Source: Burkholderiales bacterium (GTDB lineage Bacteria; Pseudomonadota; Gammaproteobacteria; Burkholderiales; SG8-41). From it: a stretch of 64,000 nucleotides of DNA. The translations under genes were made by a program, and so were the position numbers. The notes under the pieces were generated by a model, which searched no databases, was not told the DNA's origin, and saw only the letters and a program-made list of their open reading frames with translations. The DNA lies in NCBI GenBank assembly GCA_030684405.1, contig JAUXYA010000024.1, positions 82,657 to 146,656 of the forward strand. Reading direction: 5' to 3'. Every line of letters starts with the position of its first letter. Within the stretch, counting starts at the first letter, position 1. Of this stretch, positions 53,461-61,007 are shown one piece after another.

Positions 53461-53551
53461 ATGCCCCTGAATACTCCTGAAGCAGCTGTTGCCGCCGGCA
53501 TCGGCGGCGTCCACAATCCAGCCCTCAATCCCACCTCACCAGAAACTCGCC

Positions 53552-54355
53552 ATGAATGCCATTGAAAATCCTGATCCGCTGATCATCGGCGGACAGAGCT
53601 TCCACTCCCGGCTGCTGATTGGCACCGGGAAGTACCGCGATTTCACCGAAACCCGCGCCGCCATCGATGCCAGCGGCGCGCAGATCGTCACCGTCGCCAT
53701 CCGCCGCACCAACATCGGGCAGAACGCCGGCGAGCCCAGCCTGCTCGATGCAGTGCCGGCATCCCGCTTCACGATGCTGCCCAATACCGCAGGCTGCTAC
53801 ACCGCGGACGATGCGGTGCGCACGCTGCGCCTGGCACGCGAGCTGCTCGACGGGCACGACCTGGTCAAGCTGGAAGTGCTGGGCGACCCGAAAACCCTCT
53901 ACCCGAACGTGGTCGAGACGCTCGTTGCCGCGAAAACCCTGGTCAAAGACGGTTTTCGCGTGATGGTTTACACCTCCGACGACCCCATCGTCGCGAAGCA
54001 GCTGGAAGACATCGGCTGCGTGGCAGTGATGCCGCTCGCTTCACTGATCGGCTCCGGCATGGGCATCCTCAATCCCTGGAATCTGCAGATCATCATCGAG
54101 AATGCAAAGGTGCCGGTGGTTGTCGATGCCGGCGTCGGCACCGCCTCCGACGCCGCGATCGCGATGGAGCTGGGCTGCGATGCCGTGCTGATGAACACCG
54201 CGATCGCGGCGGCGCGCGACCCGGTGTTGATGGCGCGGGCGATGAAACAGGCTGTCACTGCGGGACGCGATGCCTGGCGCGCCGGACGGATGCCGAAAAA
54301 ACTCTACTCCGCCGCCCCCAGCTCGCCGACCGCCGGCCTGATCGGGAAGGCCTGA
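53552..54355 (+). CDS. thiG: Thiazole synthase
   Basis: It has [17 protein letters not shown] and [13 protein letters not shown]. Confidence 0.95.
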
Positions 54356-54472
54356 TCGGCACTCGGCCGTCGCCGGGTCGCGGAACCCAAATACCCCCGA
54401 AAATCCCCCCTTAATCCGGGTTTAAGCGGCGCGCCCCTCTCTGCACAATCCCGCTAACGCCCTACAAGGGCA

Positions 54473-57400
54473 TTGGGGGACATTCCCGTGAACGCTCGCG
54501 CAGCCATTGATTCCGCAAACGCCGCACCGACCGAATCCACAGACGAAGGACCGGGACCGCAGTTACGCGTCATCAAGGAAGCCCTGGCGCGCAGCCAGGC
54601 CGAATACCACACCCGACTCGAAGCGGAGTCCCGCATCGCTTGGGAAACCCGTGGACACGCACAGGCCGAAGCCCGCCTGCAGGCAGAAATCAACGCACGC
54701 GAGGCCGCGCAGGCTCGTGCTGCTGCCGATGAACAGGCGGCTCTTGAGGCAGACCAGCGCCGCGCCACGGAACAGGAAGCCCTGACCCGCGCCGAAGCCC
54801 GTCGCGCCGCAGAGGCTGCAGCCGCCCATGAGGCTGCCGAACGGCTGGCGCTGGAAGAACAGCGCGCCAGCGCGGCCCGGGCCACCCTGCGCAGGGAGCA
54901 AGAAGCCCGCCGCGCCACTCTCGCCAAAACCGAACTTGAAGCGGCCGCTCATCGCCGTGCCGAAGAGGACAGCCGGCTGATCAATGAACTGCTTGCCGGC
55001 CTGCGCACTGCGGAAGCAGCGCGGGCGGCCGAACACGCCCGCTCCGAAGCCATGACGCGCGCGCGGCTGGCCGCGGAAACTGCAGCCGCTGCGGAAGCGC
55101 GCGCCCGCGCCGCCGCAGAGTCACGTGCCGAAGAGGAGGCACGCGCCAGGTCTGACGCTGAAACACGCGCCCGTGAACTCGCTGCGGAGCGTGCCGAAAC
55201 CGATGCACGCCTGCGCTTCCTCGCAGAGACCCGGATCGAGGCCGACGCCGCCTGCGCCGCCGAAGCAGAGGCACGCGCGAAAGCAGAACAGGCAGCACTC
55301 TCTGAAGCGCAGGCGCGCAACACCGCCGAAGCCCGGGCCCGTGCAGCCGCGGAAGCACGCAGCCGCATCGACCAGGAGCTCGCCGCCGCGGCACGCGCCA
55401 AGGCCGAGGAAGAACGCCTGTGCATGGTGGAAACCGAAGCGCGTGCAACGCTGATTGAGCGCGAGCGCGCCGAAATCGCCGCCCGCCGCAACGCGCAGCA
55501 GCGGGAGCAGCAGGCCATCGCTGCACGCCTTGCCGCCGAGGAGGAGTTTCGGCGGATCACGCAGGAACGCGCGGATGCGGAACTCGCGGCGCAGGAACAG
55601 TCCGAGGCGCGCGTACGCGCCGAAAGCCGGGCTTCCCAAGCCGCGCGGACACGCGCCGGGGCCGATGCGGCGGCGGCAACAGCCGCCGAGGCACGGCATG
55701 CCGCAGAAAACGAGGCGGCAAGGCTTGCCGAAGCGCGCGCCGAACTGGATCGCCTGACCGCGGAAGTCACCGCATCACGCAACGAGGCGCTGGCCCGCAC
55801 CGCGGCTGCCGCCGAGGCCCGGCTCGCAGCGGAGGCCGAAGCCCGCGCCGAAGCGGAAGCGCGAGCGGCAATGGACATCGAAGCCGAACGCGCGGCGCAG
55901 GCGGCCGCCCATGCCGACCGTCTCGCGCAGCAGGCCGCACTCGCGCTGCAACAGGCCGCGGTCGCCGCCGAGGGGGCAGCGCGGCTGCGTGCTACGGAAG
56001 AACACCAGGCCACGCTCGCCGAGGAAGCGCGTGAGCGTGCCGAACGAAAAGCCGCAGACGAGGCGACGGCACGGCGTGTTGCAGAGGAACAGGCCCACGC
56101 TGATGCGGAACGCCGCGCAGCACTGGATGCGGCCGCAAGACAGGAAGCGGAAATCCGCGACCAGGCGGAAAAGGCCGCGCAGCAGGCGGCCCACGAACGC
56201 ATCGCCGCTGAGCAGCAGGCACGCAACTCGGCCGAACTGCGAGCGCGTCGCGAAGCCGAGCGTTGCGCTGCCGCACTGGTGCGTGCGGATGCCGAGCGCA
56301 AAGCGAGCGAGCAGCTTGCCACCGAAACCCGGCTGGACGCCGCTGCGGCTGCAGCGGCACGCGAACATGCCGAACGCCTGGAGGCCGCTGCAGAGGCGCT
56401 GGCAGAACGCGAAGCTGCGGAACGGCAGGCTACTGAAGCCGCACGCGCGCGCGCAGCCCGCGAATCGGAACTGGCGGCAACTGCACAGGAAAAAATGCGG
56501 ACGGAACAGGCACTGGCCAAAACTCTTGCCGCCCGCCTGGAAAACGAAGCTGCGGCAAACCGCGCTGCGGACGAACGGCGGCGCGTCGAAGCCGGGGCTG
56601 CGAAAGCAGCAGCGGACCGGGCCGCGGCAGAAAAACAGTGTGCTCAAAACGCGCTGGAGCGCAGTGATGCGGACAGTCTGGCCGCCGAGCAGGCGCGCGA
56701 GGCCGCGGTTGCCGAAGCAGCGGCCGGCCGGGCCGCGCACGAGCGGATAGCGGCGGAGGCCGCCGTACTTGCGGCGACCCGGCAACGGCAGCAGGCCGAG
56801 ACCGATGCCGCGGACGCCGCAGGCCGGCGCGTCGAAGCGGAACAGGCACTGACGGAGCAATGCGCCGCAGCCGCTGCTGCGGCCCGCGCGGCCACCCACA
56901 AAAGACAAACCGGGCAGCAGCGCACCCGCGCCGCATCCATCGCCCGCCGTTATGCGGAGCAGGCGCTGGCAGAAGCACAGTCACGGCTCGCCGCCGCCGA
57001 TCTTGCGGCCGCAACCGCGGCACGCCGCAAGGAAATGGCAGTGCAGGAGCAGTCCCGTCTGGCGGAGACCGCGCGGATCGCCGCGGAACAGGCGGCGGCA
57101 GATGCAGAGACAGCCCAGAAGCTGGCGGGAGAATCACGTGCCGCTGCCGCAGAGCAGCAGGCCGCAGCCGCGGCACGGCTTGCAGCCGAACGTTCGGCCG
57201 TGGCGGCACTGCGCGAACGCGCTGCAGCCGATGCGCGCCGTGCGGCGGCTGCAGCCGAACTCGCGGCGGCGGCCCAGGCACGTCAGGCCGTGCTGGCGGA
57301 AGAAGCAGCCCTGCTCGAAACACTGGGTGCAAGGGAGAGCGCCGTCGTCATCGCCACGGCCGATGCCAATTCGGCACGACAGGCGCGGTTGCTCGCCGAA

Positions 57401-57889
57401 GGGGAAAACGCAGCGCTGGCCGCCGAACGCCTCGAAACCGAACAACGCGCGGCGGATGCCGCGCAGAGACGCTGCAACGACGAGTATGCGGCCGTCAATG
57501 CCGCCCGCGTTCGTGCCGAAGCGGAAGCTGCTGCAGCCACCGCGGCGCAGCAACGTGCGATCGCCGAGCGCGACGCGGCAGAACGCGCGTGGACAGCCGC
57601 CGCGCAAAACCGGACTTGCACCAGGGCGCTGCGCCGTGCAGGACGCAGAGCAGCGCTGGCAAAGGCATTGCGCCACCCGGCGCCGAGCTGGGCCATCGCC
57701 GCCTCATTTGCCGCCTGGGCCGTGTTCTCGGGCTGGGCGCCCGCCACGCTGCCTGCTGCCGCACCGCAGGCAGCAGCGGCATTGCAGATCGCCGCGATCT
57801 ATCCGGCAGGAGATGACACGGGCATCAGCCTGAAGTTCGACATGCTGGGCGCCAGCAACTCGCCACAGGCCGGCATCGCGCAGCCCTGA
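54473..57889 (+). CDS. Very large Ala/Glu/Arg/Gln-rich predicted alpha-helical protein with a single C-terminal hydrophobic segment
   Basis: This 3.4 kb frame stays open and is dominated by GCN/GAR/CGN codons (G in first position). The other long ORFs here read as Ser/Ala/Arg or Pro/Arg shadow frames. The start is TTG at 54473 or GTG at 54488. The C-terminus is [22 protein letters not shown]. Confidence 0.6.
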
Positions 57890-57930
57890 GCGGCGGCCAC
57901 TGGCCGTCGATTCCGTTACACTCGGCGGCC

Positions 57931-58617
57931 ATGAATCCGCCGGAACAACGATCGATCCGCAGCTACGTGCTGCGTCAGGGGCGCGTGTCGAACGCGCAGA
58001 GACGCGCGCACGATACCCTGCTGCCCCGTTATGGACTTGAGTACCGGGATTCCCCGCTCGACCTTGATCAGGTTTTTGGCCGCAACGCGCCGCACATGCT
58101 CGAAATCGGCTGCGGAATGGGTGAAACAACGGTGGCGATCGCCGCAGCGCATCCCGACATCGATTATCTGGGCATCGAGGTGCATACCCCCGGCGTGGGC
58201 AGCCTGTTGAAACAGATCGAGGCTGCCGGACTTGCCAATCTGCGCGTGGTCCAGCATGACGCGGTCGCGGTACTGCAGCAGATGATCGCGCCCGACAGCC
58301 TCGACGCCATTCACATCTTCTTTCCGGATCCCTGGCCGAAAAAGCGCCACCACAAGCGGCGGCTGATCCAGCCACCCTTCGTCGGGCTTGCAGCGTCACG
58401 CCTCAAGCCCGGCGGCTACCTGCATGCGGCAACGGACTGGCACGAATACGCCGAACAGATGCTGGTCGTGTTCGGCTCCGAGCCGCTGCTCGAGAATACG
58501 GCCTTGACCTATGCACCGCGGCCGGCCTACCGGCCACAGACCAAATTCGAGACCCGCGGACTGAAACTGGGCCATGGCGTCTGGGATCTCGTGTTCCGGC
58601 GCAGCACGCAGACATGA
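57931..58617 (+). CDS. trmB: tRNA (guanine-N7)-methyltransferase
   Basis: It has LEIGCGMGE and [16 protein letters not shown]. Confidence 0.93.
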
Positions 58618-58620
58618 AAA

Positions 58621-58642
58621 ACGGCGGCCCGCGGGCCGCCAT
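58621..58642. terminator. GC-rich hairpin between convergent trmB and the Bug-family gene (followed by a T-run on the minus strand)
   Basis: aaaaacGGCGGCCCGCGGGCCGCCatg forms a palindromic stem. Read on the minus strand, TTTTT follows the stem. Confidence 0.55.
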
Positions 58643-58660
58643 GTGCTGAAGCAGTCGCGC

Positions 58661-59638
58661 TTACTGGATGCCGCCGATCTTTGCTTCGCGGATCACGTCA
58701 CCCCAGGCCTTGCGCTCGGACTTGATGAAAGCGCCGAATTCTTCAGGCGAACTGTAGACGGCTTCGATCGCCATGGTGCCGAGGTTCTTTTTGACTTCGG
58801 CATCGTTAAGGGCAATCTTCAGGTCGGCGGACACCTTGTCGACCACCGAGCGCTGCACCCCGGCCGGGAACATGATGCCCCACCAGTTGGCGGCGTCGAA
58901 GCCTTTCAGACCCTGCTCGGCCAGCGTCGGCAAATCGGGATTGAAGGGTGTGCGCTGGCCACTGGTCACCGCCAGCGCCTTCAGCTTGCCAGCCTTGATG
59001 TTGCCCATCACCGGCGGCGCGTCAGAAAACATCAGCATGATGTGGCCGCCCTGCACCGCGGCGATCGAATACACGCCACCCTGGAAGGGCACTGTAACGA
59101 TATCGACCTGGGCAGCCCGCTTGAACATTTCACCGACCAAATGCGACATGCTGCCGGGACCGCTGGTGGCATAGGTCAGCACGCCGGGCTGCTTCTTCGC
59201 GAGGGCAATGACATCCTTGACGTTTCTCACCGGCAGCGTGTTAGGGGTCACCAGGATGTTTGCGGCGCGCGTGATCTGTCCGACCGGCACAAAATCCTTG
59301 TCCACGTCGTACTTGACCTTGTTGAGCAGAGGATTCGCCAGCACCGGTCCAAAGTTTCCGAGCAGGAAGGTGTGCCCGTCCGGAGCCTGCTTCGCCGCGT
59401 ACTCCATGCCCACCGCACCGGCGGCGCCCGGCCGCGAATCCACCAGCACGTTCTGGCCCCACAGCTCGGTCAGTTTTTTCCCGATGATCCGCGCCATCAC
59501 ATCGGAACTGCCACCGGCGGGATAAGTCACCACGAATCGCACCGGTTTTGACGGATAGGCCTGCGCCTGCGCGGCCGTTCCCGCCAAGGTGGCGATGGCC
59601 GCTGCGGACGAGATCAAAATCTGTTTGATGCCGATCAT
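58661..59638 (-). CDS. Tripartite tricarboxylate transporter substrate-binding protein (Bug/TctC family)
   Basis: 325 aa with a signal peptide, and the sequence YPSKPVRFVVTYPAGGSSDVMARI typical of the Bug family. Confidence 0.9.
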   Translation of the reverse strand: MIGIKQILISSAAAIATLAGTAAQAQAYPSKPVRFVVTYPAGGSSDVMARIIGKKLTELWGQNVLVDSRPGAAGAVGMEYAAKQAPDGHTFLLGNFGPVLANPLLNKVKYDVDKDFVPVGQITRAANILVTPNTLPVRNVKDVIALAKKQPGVLTYATSGPGSMSHLVGEMFKRAAQVDIVTVPFQGGVYSIAAVQGGHIMLMFSDAPPVMGNIKAGKLKALAVTSGQRTPFNPDLPTLAEQGLKGFDAANWWGIMFPAGVQRSVVDKVSADLKIALNDAEVKKNLGTMAIEAVYSSPEEFGAFIKSERKAWGDVIREAKIGGIQ

Positions 59639-59795: not shown

Positions 59796-61007
59796 CTACA
59801 GGAACCGGGCGATGTCGATACCCCAGTTTTCGGGGTTCTCGTGCTGCACGATGCGATCGCCGCCGCCACGACCAAGGGGCTTGGAAAGATCGACATCTTC
59901 GGCCGGAAGGTAATGGTTGTGCTTGACGCTGAAGATCACCCGCACCAGTGGTTTCAGCAGATTGCCCTCGCACTGCCCGATGACGACCGCCAGTCGTCCA
60001 CTTTCCAGGCGAACCAGGGAGCCGGTGGGATAGATGCCAATACAGCGAGTGAAGGCATGTACCAGCTCCGGGTTGAAGTGGAACTTGCTCCACTCGAATA
60101 TCTTGCGCATCGCCTCGGTCGGCTCCATGCCCTTGTGATAACAGCGGTCGGAGGTAATGGCGTCGTAAACGTCAACGATCGCCGCCATTTGGCCCATCTG
60201 CGAGATCTCGCCCGCTTTCAGGCCCAACGGATAACCGCTGCCGTCATGGCGCTCGTGGTGCTGTGCCGCGACCTGCACCGCGATCGCTGAAATGCCGGGC
60301 GTTGCCTCGAGAATGCGCCGACTTTCCACGACATGGCACTTGATCTGGCGGAACTCGTCGTCGGTCAGGCGACCGGGCTTGTTGAGTATTTCGTCAGAAA
60401 CTTTCGTCTTGCCGATGTCGTGCAGCAAGCCGCCGATCCCAGCTTCGTGGATGTCTGAGGGTGGTAGACCCAGCGCTCGCGCAAAAGCGGTCTGCAGTCC
60501 GCAAACACTGACCGAATGCTGGAACGTGTAGTCATCCTTGTTCTTGATCCGGCACAGGCTCAGCAGCGCGCCGCTGTTGCGCAGGATCGACTGGGTTATT
60601 TTCCCCACCACCGGCTCGACACGCTCGCTCTGGATCTGCCGGCCCAGCCGCACATCCTGCATCAGGTCGCGGATCAGCGCATTGGCCTCGCCCTGGATGC
60701 GTTGCGCGCTGGCCACCTCTTCCCGCATCGAGGTCTGGCGCTGACGCGGCGCAGCGGCTTCGGCAAAAGCCACCATTTCCCGGTCGAGTTCGCGCTCAAC
60801 CTCGACTGCGTCCTGACCGGGGCCATCAACCCCGCGCGCCGGATCGATGTAGACCTCGCGGATGCCAGCTTCGCGGATTTTCAGGATCTGCCCCTCGTTC
60901 GAGAGCGCGAACTGCCTGCGCAGGAAGGGATGATCCATCCAGTCGCAGTTCAGATCCTGTATGAACATGCCGACCCGCAGGTCTGACACGCCGATTTTTC
61001 TGAACAT
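59796..61007 (-). CDS. HD-GYP domain phosphodiesterase
   Basis: It has HDIGKTKV and HHERHDGSGYPLGL. Confidence 0.9.
   Translation of the reverse strand: MFRKIGVSDLRVGMFIQDLNCDWMDHPFLRRQFALSNEGQILKIREAGIREVYIDPARGVDGPGQDAVEVERELDREMVAFAEAAAPRQRQTSMREEVASAQRIQGEANALIRDLMQDVRLGRQIQSERVEPVVGKITQSILRNSGALLSLCRIKNKDDYTFQHSVSVCGLQTAFARALGLPPSDIHEAGIGGLLHDIGKTKVSDEILNKPGRLTDDEFRQIKCHVVESRRILEATPGISAIAVQVAAQHHERHDGSGYPLGLKAGEISQMGQMAAIVDVYDAITSDRCYHKGMEPTEAMRKIFEWSKFHFNPELVHAFTRCIGIYPTGSLVRLESGRLAVVIGQCEGNLLKPLVRVIFSVKHNHYLPAEDVDLSKPLGRGGGDRIVQHENPENWGIDIARFL

Follow-up and report, generated by a model that had tools for sequence, protein, structure and literature searches.

A stretch of 64,000 nucleotides from a Burkholderiales bacterium (contig JAUXYA010000024.1 of assembly GCA_030684405.1), which we call the window, contains between thiG and trmB a plus-strand gene for a very long, alanine-rich protein, referred to here as the rod protein. 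On balance, we are inclined to regard this protein as a coiled-coil scaffold or tether, anchored in the membrane and lying in the cytoplasm, that is tied to a flagellum of the FlhF/FlhG type. Comparative analysis identifies it as a member of an unannotated family spread through the order Burkholderiales of the Genome Taxonomy Database (GTDB), and this rod family is nearly confined to relatives with flagellar genes. The predicted architecture of the 1133 residues comprises a short disordered N-terminus, a helical rod of ~1040 residues, a single C-terminal anchor, and a periplasmic tail of 45 residues. The genome of the window is designated G000; other genomes, loci, and proteins carry G-, L-, and P-numbers, respectively.

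The rod protein is composed of 36.3% Ala, 13.6% Glu, 13.5% Arg, 6.5% Leu, and 6.1% Gln, with Glu, Asp, Arg, and Lys together making up 32% of the residues. No Pro occurs in the 1039 residues from 30 to 1068 (numbered in the 1138-residue reading), Gly totals 20, and seven Cys are present. An earlier note on this DNA had correctly recognized the dominance of Ala, Glu, Arg, and Gln over long stretches lacking Pro but had described the runs as irregular. Charge autocorrelation and phase tracking revealed instead an array of ~72 phased 14-residue units spanning residues 35–1049 (54590–57634, plus strand). The signed-charge autocorrelation was −0.33 at lag 4, +0.28 at lag 14, +0.27 at lag 28, and +0.22 at lag 42, corresponding to z-scores against 2000 shuffles of −10.4, +8.9, and +8.9 for lags 4, 14, and 28. 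Among the 6054 open reading frames (ORFs) of at least 200 residues in G000, that of the rod protein ranks top by charge periodicity. The unit consensus of the phase-tracking model is R(0) a x A(3) E/D(4) x x A(7) x x a(10) A(11) x a, with Arg or Lys at position 0 in 57 of the 72 units, Glu or Asp at position 4 in equally many, and both in 50. Only four phase breaks occur in the whole rod, and residues 171–789 are unbroken; once the units are stacked, the repeat can be recognized by eye. An extreme Ala/Glu/Arg composition can thus mask an ordered, selected sequence, which calls for caution in annotation.

The repeat is also the unit in which the protein is conserved and changes in length. Orthologues are present in seven of the 40 genomes of the genus (G000 and six others); they are 1025–1138 residues long, 46–86% identical, and colinear, with intact frames. 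When six full-length orthologues were compared, the share of invariant columns was 0.54 at position 0 of the unit, 0.33–0.38 at positions 3, 4, 7, 10, and 11, and 0.12–0.26 elsewhere, Arg(0) and Glu(4) being the most conserved columns of the rod. The conserved positions are therefore the a, d, and e sites of two consecutive heptads. The length variation that the earlier note had proposed to look for takes the form of rod insertions and deletions (indels) of 14, 42, 56, and 112 residues, all exact multiples of 14; the sole exception is a 3-residue indel within a predicted helix break (~789–810). Tandem Repeats Finder detected no 42-bp period in the DNA, only six short local arrays.

An AlphaFold2 (AF2) model placed helices at residues 23–175, 180–379, 389–797, and 811–1060, followed by a short anchor helix, with a mean predicted local distance difference test (pLDDT) score of 60 and a predicted template modelling (pTM) score of 0.22. 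The earlier expectation of a nearly all-helical protein is thus borne out by the model, with three breaks, two of which coincide with register shifts. The length of ~150 nm suggested before holds for an extended rod (~155 nm, from 1038 residues at 0.15 nm each), whereas the rod would be shorter if the three breaks fold back.

Whether such a rod is a long coiled coil or a single α-helix of the Glu/Arg/Lys (ER/K) type had been left as alternatives. We consider it likely that the rod forms an alanine-cored, heptad-based coiled coil or helical bundle, because the period is twice seven residues, conservation falls on a, d, and e, indels come in multiples of 14, and homologues of lower GC content carry a hydrophobic seam. 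A core periodicity based on seven residues is evident in the 14-residue period with its positions 0, 3, 4, 7, 10, and 11. The seam at heptad a and d is mostly Ala in the rod protein, with Arg at every second a, while the lower-GC homologues (20–28% Ala) have 25–47% Leu, Ile, Val, Met, or Phe at positions 1, 3, 7, 8, 10, and 11. Register shifts in the family are of 7 residues or of +4, the stutter type. We favour the view that the core has turned almost purely to alanine in this GC-rich lineage, with an Arg(a)–Glu(e) pair in every second heptad.

A single helix is a less probable form of the rod. In its most explicit version, which we hold to be slightly less probable again, the rod would be a monomeric stable single α-helix (SAH), or an Ala-based helix of the 'EAAAR' type, serving as a long flexible spacer, with the 14-residue period as a relic of ancient tandem duplication. 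Dense opposite-charge pairs between residues i and i+4, as in SAHs, are indeed found: Arg-to-Glu i+4 pairs are enriched with a z-score of 11.5 and Glu-to-Arg pairs with 5.0, and opposite charges outnumber like charges by 185 to 43 at i+3/i+4, same-charge pairs being depleted. Leu, Ile, Val, Met, and Phe amount to only 11% and lack a 3.5-residue periodicity, and both AF2 models consist of long isolated helices (pTM 0.2). Both the scarcity of bulky hydrophobics without a 3.5-residue period and the Arg-to-Glu enrichment would fit a single α-helix and weigh against the coiled coil. However, SAHs are described as helices dominated by charged Glu, Lys, and Arg and held by salt bridges (PMC5812594, PMC5347031), whereas the rod is only 32% charged and 36% Ala, and the ER/K part of the earlier suggestion is therefore not upheld. 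The period of exactly 2 × 7, the conservation at a, d, and e, and the placement of Leu, Ile, and Val at seam positions in homologues with 20–25% Ala also argue against a single helix, as do indels restricted to multiples of 14 in a gene without a 42-bp DNA period. A coiled coil with an alanine core hence remains our preferred reading. With ~72 phased units, an Arg–Glu pair on an alanine seam, and length changes by whole units, the rod could serve naturally as a model of helical spacers that are long and rigid.

Several landmarks divide the protein. The first ~22 residues (54488–54553) are acidic, contain Pro and Gly, and are probably disordered, given pLDDT values below 50 for residues 1–24 and indels among orthologues. 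The conserved rod head follows at residues ~26–78 (54563–54721); it is the densest block of invariant columns among the seven orthologues (L-x-x-I-K-E-A-L-A-R...R-L-Q-A-E-I-x-A-R-E-A-A) and matches a start motif found family-wide, A-I-x-E-A-x-A-R-x-E-A-E. The first register break, at residues ~171–179 (54998–55024), contains an invariant Gly171 and shifts the phase by +10, equivalent to a stutter-like insertion of four residues; the AF2 helix break at 176–179 lies beside this phase break at 171, and the homologues of G122, G033, and G336 show an equally large shift at residue 160–274. The second interruption (residues 380–388, 55625–55651) is seen in the model, with pLDDT below 50 for residues 372–391, and leaves the 14-residue phase unchanged. 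The third (residues ~789–810, 56852–56917) combines a register shift with the 3-residue indel.

The membrane anchor is predicted to be the C-terminal hydrophobic segment at residues ~1067–1088 (57686–57751), which follows a basic stretch and in which AF2 modelled a helix at 1070–1081. The best 19-residue window has a mean Kyte-Doolittle value of 1.29; the top windows all lie at residues 1068–1088, 45 residues follow, and no other hydrophobic segment exists in the protein, in agreement with the earlier note. The orthologues retain the hydrophobic stretch and, ahead of it, a PAP-x-W-A motif, and clearer anchors occupy the same relative place in the homologues of G122, G255, G232, G033/G324, and G373 (Kyte-Doolittle values of 1.7–2.3, with 50–74 residues after them). 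The N-terminus, acidic and containing Pro and Gly, has no hydrophobic stretch, and an N-terminal signal peptide is not indicated. With the basic cluster located before the anchor, the positive-inside rule suggests an N-in/C-out topology with the rod in the cytoplasm and the tail in the periplasm. The protein thus has the layout of a tail-anchored inner-membrane protein, namely one hydrophobic segment near the C-terminus and none elsewhere, no signal peptide, and a bulk predicted to be cytoplasmic from the orientation given by the positive-inside rule. The 45-residue tail (57752–57886), predicted to be periplasmic, contains the motif I-S-L-K-F-D (57824–57841); the alternating pattern h-x-L-[KR]-h-[DxL] recurs as LSLKLD and VSLRLDH in orthologues and as PLKLRLD in G232 and LSLRMRL in G122 among distant homologues.

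Two further proteins share parts of this layout. The metagenomic protein P0012 (289 residues) resembles a miniature anchor-plus-tail module, with an Ala/Glu/Arg-rich helix, a clear C-terminal transmembrane segment, and a tail containing VHLRLDG; its gene adjoins Polysacc_synt and glycosyltransferase genes, and the gene contexts of P0012 and P0008 are uninformative. In G000 itself, outside the window, the ORF ranking second in the genome for Arg/Glu i+4 patterning (contig C36, 267072–270329, plus strand) encodes 1085 residues with an N-terminal domain, a ~560-residue Ala/Glu/Lys/Arg helix, one transmembrane segment, and a ~370-residue periplasmic domain. It resembles P0016, which has AsmA-type Pfam domains, and has the same design as the rod protein: cytoplasmic rod, transmembrane segment, and periplasmic part.

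The suggestion of a flagellar function is based on comparative genomics. In the genus of G000, the flhA family (PF00771) is present in 10 of 40 genomes, and the rod gene occurs in seven of these 10 and in none of the 30 flhA-negative genomes (uncorrected hypergeometric p ~6e-6). On a maximum-likelihood tree of thiG and trmB, at least five changes are required for the rod gene and at least seven for flhA; in independent pairs differing in flhA, the rod gene follows in the same direction three to four times and never in the opposite one. A second genus, that of G122, belonging to another family, shows the same association, with rod genes in 6/9 flhA-positive and 2/28 flhA-negative genomes (uncorrected p ~9e-4). 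In a third genus, of ammonia oxidisers (GC content 42–48%; of five genomes checked, four carry one to three amoA-family genes), the homologue comes immediately after fliM, fliN, fliO, fliP, fliQ, and fliR, and on their strand, in six of eight genomes and lies beside flgA in a seventh. Four genomes with such a fliR-linked homologue (loci L041, L044, L046, and L048) have a DUF4139 gene (PF13598, ~490–510 residues) directly 3' of it. Across the order, a profile of the first 141 residues of the rod protein matched in 21 of 401 sampled genomes, and 20 of the 21 matches were in flhA-positive genomes, compared with 264 of 401 overall; the tally includes the unpublished G242, on which no claim depends.

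Links to cyclic di-GMP (c-di-GMP) signalling were also found. In G232, from the same family but another genus, a single ORF of 1332 residues in the sequence as assembled (L039, 3256–7254, minus strand) appears to join a receiver (REC) domain, an HD-GYP domain (HD_5), the rod, a transmembrane anchor, and the PLKLRLD tail, which would connect the rod family to c-di-GMP turnover in the Rosetta-stone manner. A GAF-PAS-GGDEF-EAL gene neighbours the homologue in G297 and an HDOD gene that in G329. The window itself contains an HD-GYP gene (59796–61007) two genes from the rod gene, which is weak evidence. The flagellar cluster of G000 (L083; contig C20, 199000–217000) contains flhDC, motAB, flhB, flhA, and genes for an FlhF-type GTPase and an FlhG-type ATPase. 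Here flhC, for a master regulator of the FlhDC type, occurs together with genes of the FlhF and FlhG types; motB and flhB are separated by an HDOD gene, and flhDC adjoins a REC-GGDEF-EAL gene.

A number of observations weigh against a flagellar scaffold. Related genomes are not independent, and a tree-aware sign test gave p = 0.125, with too few pairs for significance. The rod gene lies ~66 kb from flhA in G000, among housekeeping genes, and three flhA-positive genomes of the genus are without it; the rod protein would accordingly be accessory and not essential for flagella. In the second genus, two rod carriers show no flhA, a 76%-complete metagenome-assembled genome (MAG) and a MAG of 580 contigs. 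The anchor segment of the rod protein is only marginally hydrophobic, and some family members, fliR-linked ones included, have no anchor. Moreover, the joint loss might be due to motile life as a whole, chemotaxis and pili included, and not to the flagellum itself.

These points lend themselves to a different explanation, in which the rod protein, as a scaffold anchored in the membrane, has nothing to do with the flagellum, acts for example in cell polarity, division, pili, or chemoreceptor arrays, and co-occurs with flhA through a shared motile lifestyle with a larger gene repertoire. Besides the location outside the flagellar cluster of G000, the three flhA-positive genomes lacking the gene, and the non-significant tree-aware test, the unrelated contexts of some homologues (upp, glnD, guaA, and fabF) would agree with it. 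We nevertheless judge it improbable, as the association was replicated in two genera of different families and the homologue is adjacent to fliR or flgA in seven of eight genomes of a third. The rod-free genomes also include large ones of 3.5–4.1 Mb, and genome size alone therefore does not explain the distribution.

The flagellar scaffold or tether that we favour could work as follows. In each unit, Arg at heptad a and Glu four residues further on, at e, would interrupt the alanine-lined a/d/e seam, placing a charge pair every 2.1 nm along a rod of up to ~155 nm if the three breaks stay straight. The rod protein would act together with the FlhF/FlhG-type flagellum as an accessory factor in positioning, spacing, or local c-di-GMP signalling; by analogy with TipN, TipF, and PflI, it may have a role in placement, spacing, or local signalling by c-di-GMP. 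A bolder and distinctly tentative proposal is that, in Burkholderiales, the family is an undescribed accessory part of polar flagellar systems, namely a coiled-coil ruler or tether, fixed to the membrane and as long as ~150 nm, whose phased Arg/Glu pairs set register or spacing, and whose repeat represents a new sequence class of coiled coil. Such a ruler or tether could locate the flagellar base with respect to the pole, other flagella, or chemoreceptor arrays, or present c-di-GMP enzymes; the REC-HD-GYP fusion hints at the presentation of such enzymes at the flagellar base. How flagellar placement and number are controlled has been studied extensively in a handful of model species (TipN/TipF, HubP/FimV, and FlhF/FlhG), and we know of no comparable work in most Betaproteobacteria. 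Gain and loss with flagellar genes in two genera, adjacency to fliR in ammonia oxidisers, and, in one genome, fusion to a c-di-GMP phosphodiesterase module together make the rod protein a testable candidate for a missing scaffold.

Comparison of the thiG–trmB site across the genus indicates that the rod gene is old there and has been repeatedly lost by deletion. As the earlier note had suggested, we looked for the gene between thiG and trmB in relatives: within the genus it is always at this site, and a homologue occupies the same site in G122, the only genome of the second genus with flanks checked. The two flanking genes lie 3.3–3.8 kb apart in five of the seven carriers and on separate contigs in G019 and G020, where the rod gene adjoins thiG or trmB. 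In 32 of 39 genomes of the genus, the site is empty, with trmB following thiG at 29–298 bp. A leader remnant of the rod gene persists in the empty sites of G009 and G004, synonymous divergence (dS) between G000 and G019 is 0.50 for the rod gene and 0.48–0.59 for the flanks, and the similarities among rod proteins agree with the thiG+trmB tree. Together with the G122 gene at the same site, these observations argue for loss rather than insertion; a recent mobile-element insertion is ruled out by the remnants, the flank-like dS, and the similarities following the flank tree. The empty site of G047, which is flhA-positive, has a 298-bp, AT-rich spacer with direct repeats (L067, 867–1164; CTGGATCTTGACTTCCT twice) and differs from the 29–132-bp spacers at other empty sites.

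The gene status of the rod ORF is supported by several lines of comparison. The open frame of 1138 codons runs from TTG at 54473 to 57889 on the plus strand, and the earlier note had taken all of it as the gene. The frame stands, but the start is most likely GTG at 54488, five codons downstream in frame, giving a coding sequence at 54488–57889 for 1133 residues plus stop, because a GGGGGA Shine-Dalgarno sequence lies 7 nt upstream and five orthologues have ATG at the same aligned residue (MNA...). All six frames hold long ORFs in this region, and only the plus frame spans it, as had been pointed out; the minus-strand ORFs are all interrupted, the longest having 523 residues. A G-first codon pattern had been offered as a mark of the frame. 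However, the G+C content at third codon positions (GC3) is 0.68 in the plus frame and 0.84 in the in-register antisense frame, and composition alone is therefore not decisive; it is the substitutions between orthologues that settle the frame. Between G000 and G019, they number 338 at third codon positions versus 104 and 73 at the other two. The ratio of nonsynonymous to synonymous divergence (dN/dS) between orthologues is 0.16–0.32, ~1.5–3 times that of the flanking thiG and trmB, and synonymous codon choice follows the genome (rod gene/genome: CGC 0.53/0.59, CAG 0.86/0.87, CTG 0.58/0.60). Because codon choice fits the genome, orthologues are colinear and intact, and changes are dominated by third positions at such dN/dS, the ORF is, by these comparative measures, a plus-strand protein-coding gene under purifying selection, as the earlier note had held. 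That it is non-functional, an artefact of composition in GC-rich, low-complexity DNA, a shadow of an antisense frame, or an assembly error, for which that note had allowed, is hardly credible and already refuted by the comparative data, since the long ORFs in all six frames, the higher antisense GC3, and the absence of the exact protein from large protein collections are outweighed by seven colinear, intact orthologues from independent assemblies, their dN/dS, the position-specific conservation tracking the plus-frame repeat, the interruption of all minus-strand ORFs, and homologues in other families.

The flanks agree with their earlier assignment as housekeeping genes and give no functional clue to the rod gene. 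On the 5' side is thiG, encoding thiazole synthase (53489–54355, plus strand; PF05690, E 1e-109), and on the 3' side trmB, encoding tRNA m7G46 methyltransferase (57931–58617, plus strand; TIGR00091, E 1e-56; PF02390). The leader of the rod gene (54356–54487) contains the Shine-Dalgarno sequence (54475–54480) and a putative sigma-70-like promoter, read from the sequence as TTTAAG (54421–54426), a 17-nt spacer, and CACAAT (54444–54449). The arrangement TTKRRG-N17-CACWAT and the leader are conserved at the orthologous loci of G019 and G002. A scan for consensus promoters detected none, and inspection of the leader by eye gave no convincing sigma-54 or sigma-28 promoter. The spacer between the rod gene and trmB (57890–57930) contains a conserved TTCCGTTACACTCGGCGGCC element, which is found 5' of trmB in genomes both with and without the rod gene; no plus-strand terminator-like site was found between the two genes. 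Beyond trmB, two ORFs of 325 codons overlap in antisense at 58574–59638. The real gene is that on the minus strand (58661–59638), encoding a periplasmic receptor of the TctC/Bug family (PF03401, E 1e-57), and the plus-strand ORF opposite it has no family match. A GC-rich hairpin with a T-run lies at 58621–58642, between the TctC/Bug gene and the convergent trmB.

The family reaches across the sampled order. Seventeen of the 20 profile matches outside G000 were confirmed as rods by the same head motif and R(0)/E(4) register, with lengths of 616–1778 residues; those in G352, G333, and G420 were not confirmable as rods. The head motif opens the rods of G122, G033, G336, G297, and G373, and a head motif followed by phased R(0)/E(4) 14-mers was found in G122, G255, G033, G324, G336, G297, G373, G232, and eight ammonia-oxidiser genomes. 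One homologue of 619 residues consists of 39 units with zero phase breaks. The homologues of G122 and G255 (872–887 residues), G033 and G324 (1778 residues), and G373 (928 residues) are anchored, and those of G336 and G297 have no anchor. Searches against Pfam (E 0.01), NCBIfam, and PDB sequences gave no match for the rod protein or eight distant homologues. Word-indexed searches with the whole protein, the C-terminal 99 residues, or the family alignment, in which low-complexity words saturate the candidate list, yielded either no match or just Ala/Glu/Arg proteins of similar appearance. When 1.84 billion representatives were searched exhaustively with a profile, only short orthologue fragments (P0004, P0006, and P0007) and weak matches were recovered, and exact look-up of 20 family members in a large protein collection found none present. 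Searches of the literature turned up no relevant account of either a bacterial Ala-rich repeat of 14 residues or a coiled-coil protein linked to fliR.

Among known helical rods, the rod protein shares with SAHs of the ER/K type, and with designed Ala-based helices such as A(EAAAK)n, a very long helix free of Pro and Gly, opposite-charge pairs between i and i+4, and a proposed spacer role. It differs from them by its strict 2 × 7 period, its conserved a/d/e seam, and relatives with hydrophobic seam residues. The Alacoil, reportedly described by Gernert and colleagues in 1995, has Ala at core heptad positions, and stutters occur in the coiled coils of intermediate filaments. Alacoil-type or stuttered heptad coiled coils are like the rod in having Ala in core heptad positions and discontinuities of a four-residue insertion or seven residues. 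Unlike in such coils, every second a position of the rod is Arg, paired with Glu at i+4, and this pattern persists through ~72 units.

Domain II of TolA and other Ala/Glu/Lys-rich envelope rods resemble the rod protein as long Ala/Glu/basic helices on the inner membrane. TolA has an N-terminal anchor, a periplasmic rod, and a TolA C-terminal domain; the rod protein has its anchor at the C-terminus and no Pfam or NCBIfam match, and it was not assigned to TolA. The hook-length ruler FliK, exported, without an anchor, and with a C-terminal Flg_hook/T3S4 domain, was rejected in view of the missing Pfam match, the hydrophobic anchor, and the seven Cys. A substrate of the flagellar type III secretion system was likewise dropped, as the defining domains or topology are absent. 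Myxobacterial proteins of the FrzS/AglZ type, related to motility, are described as carrying a receiver domain on a helical rod of great length. This type and the proteins P0013–P0017 share a receiver or receiver-like domain and a long rod with the REC-HD-GYP-rod fusion of G232. P0013, P0014, P0015, and P0017 come from Myxococcota, one of them under the name 'response regulator receiver protein [Corallococcus sp. M34]', and have 1500–1750 residues with a receiver-like N-terminus and a long Ala/Glu/Arg rod; three of the four carry a C-terminal DnaJ domain (PF00226, precomputed). A charge period of 14 residues is present in P0013–P0015, with a lag-14 autocorrelation of 0.23–0.31, and is weaker (0.14) in P0017. 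The unit in P0013–P0015, R-A-E-A-E-A-x-A-R-A-E-A-E-A, is a different 14-mer from that of the rod protein, these proteins have no membrane anchor, and the likeness seen is one of design.

The closest counterparts of the role we favour are the polar landmark proteins. TipN of Caulobacter (with TipF and PflI), PodJ, and HubP/FimV of Vibrio and Pseudomonas are, like the rod protein as we read it, long, mostly coiled-coil, membrane-anchored cytoplasmic proteins with links to flagellar placement and c-di-GMP. PodJ has a cytoplasmic coiled coil, one transmembrane segment, and a periplasmic C-terminus, an order shared with the predicted layout of the rod protein. The rod protein differs from these landmarks in having no sequence or domain match to them, an anchor at the extreme C-terminus, and a periplasmic part of only 45 residues. 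To our knowledge, a uniform 14-residue repeat has not been described for landmark proteins of the TipN, PodJ, HubP, or FimV type. TipN has been described as 'a polytopic coiled-coil protein' and TipF as an EAL-domain c-di-GMP effector (PMC3792480). Membership of the FimV/HubP group, which is marked by a periplasmic LysM domain and a FimV C-terminal motif, was rejected, with no LysM, FimV, or TPR match in Pfam at E 0.01. Set against these systems, the family, its 14-residue Arg/Glu repeat on an alanine seam, and its tie to flagellar genes appear to be new, whereas long coiled-coil membrane scaffolds, to which the rod protein would belong, are of a known kind.

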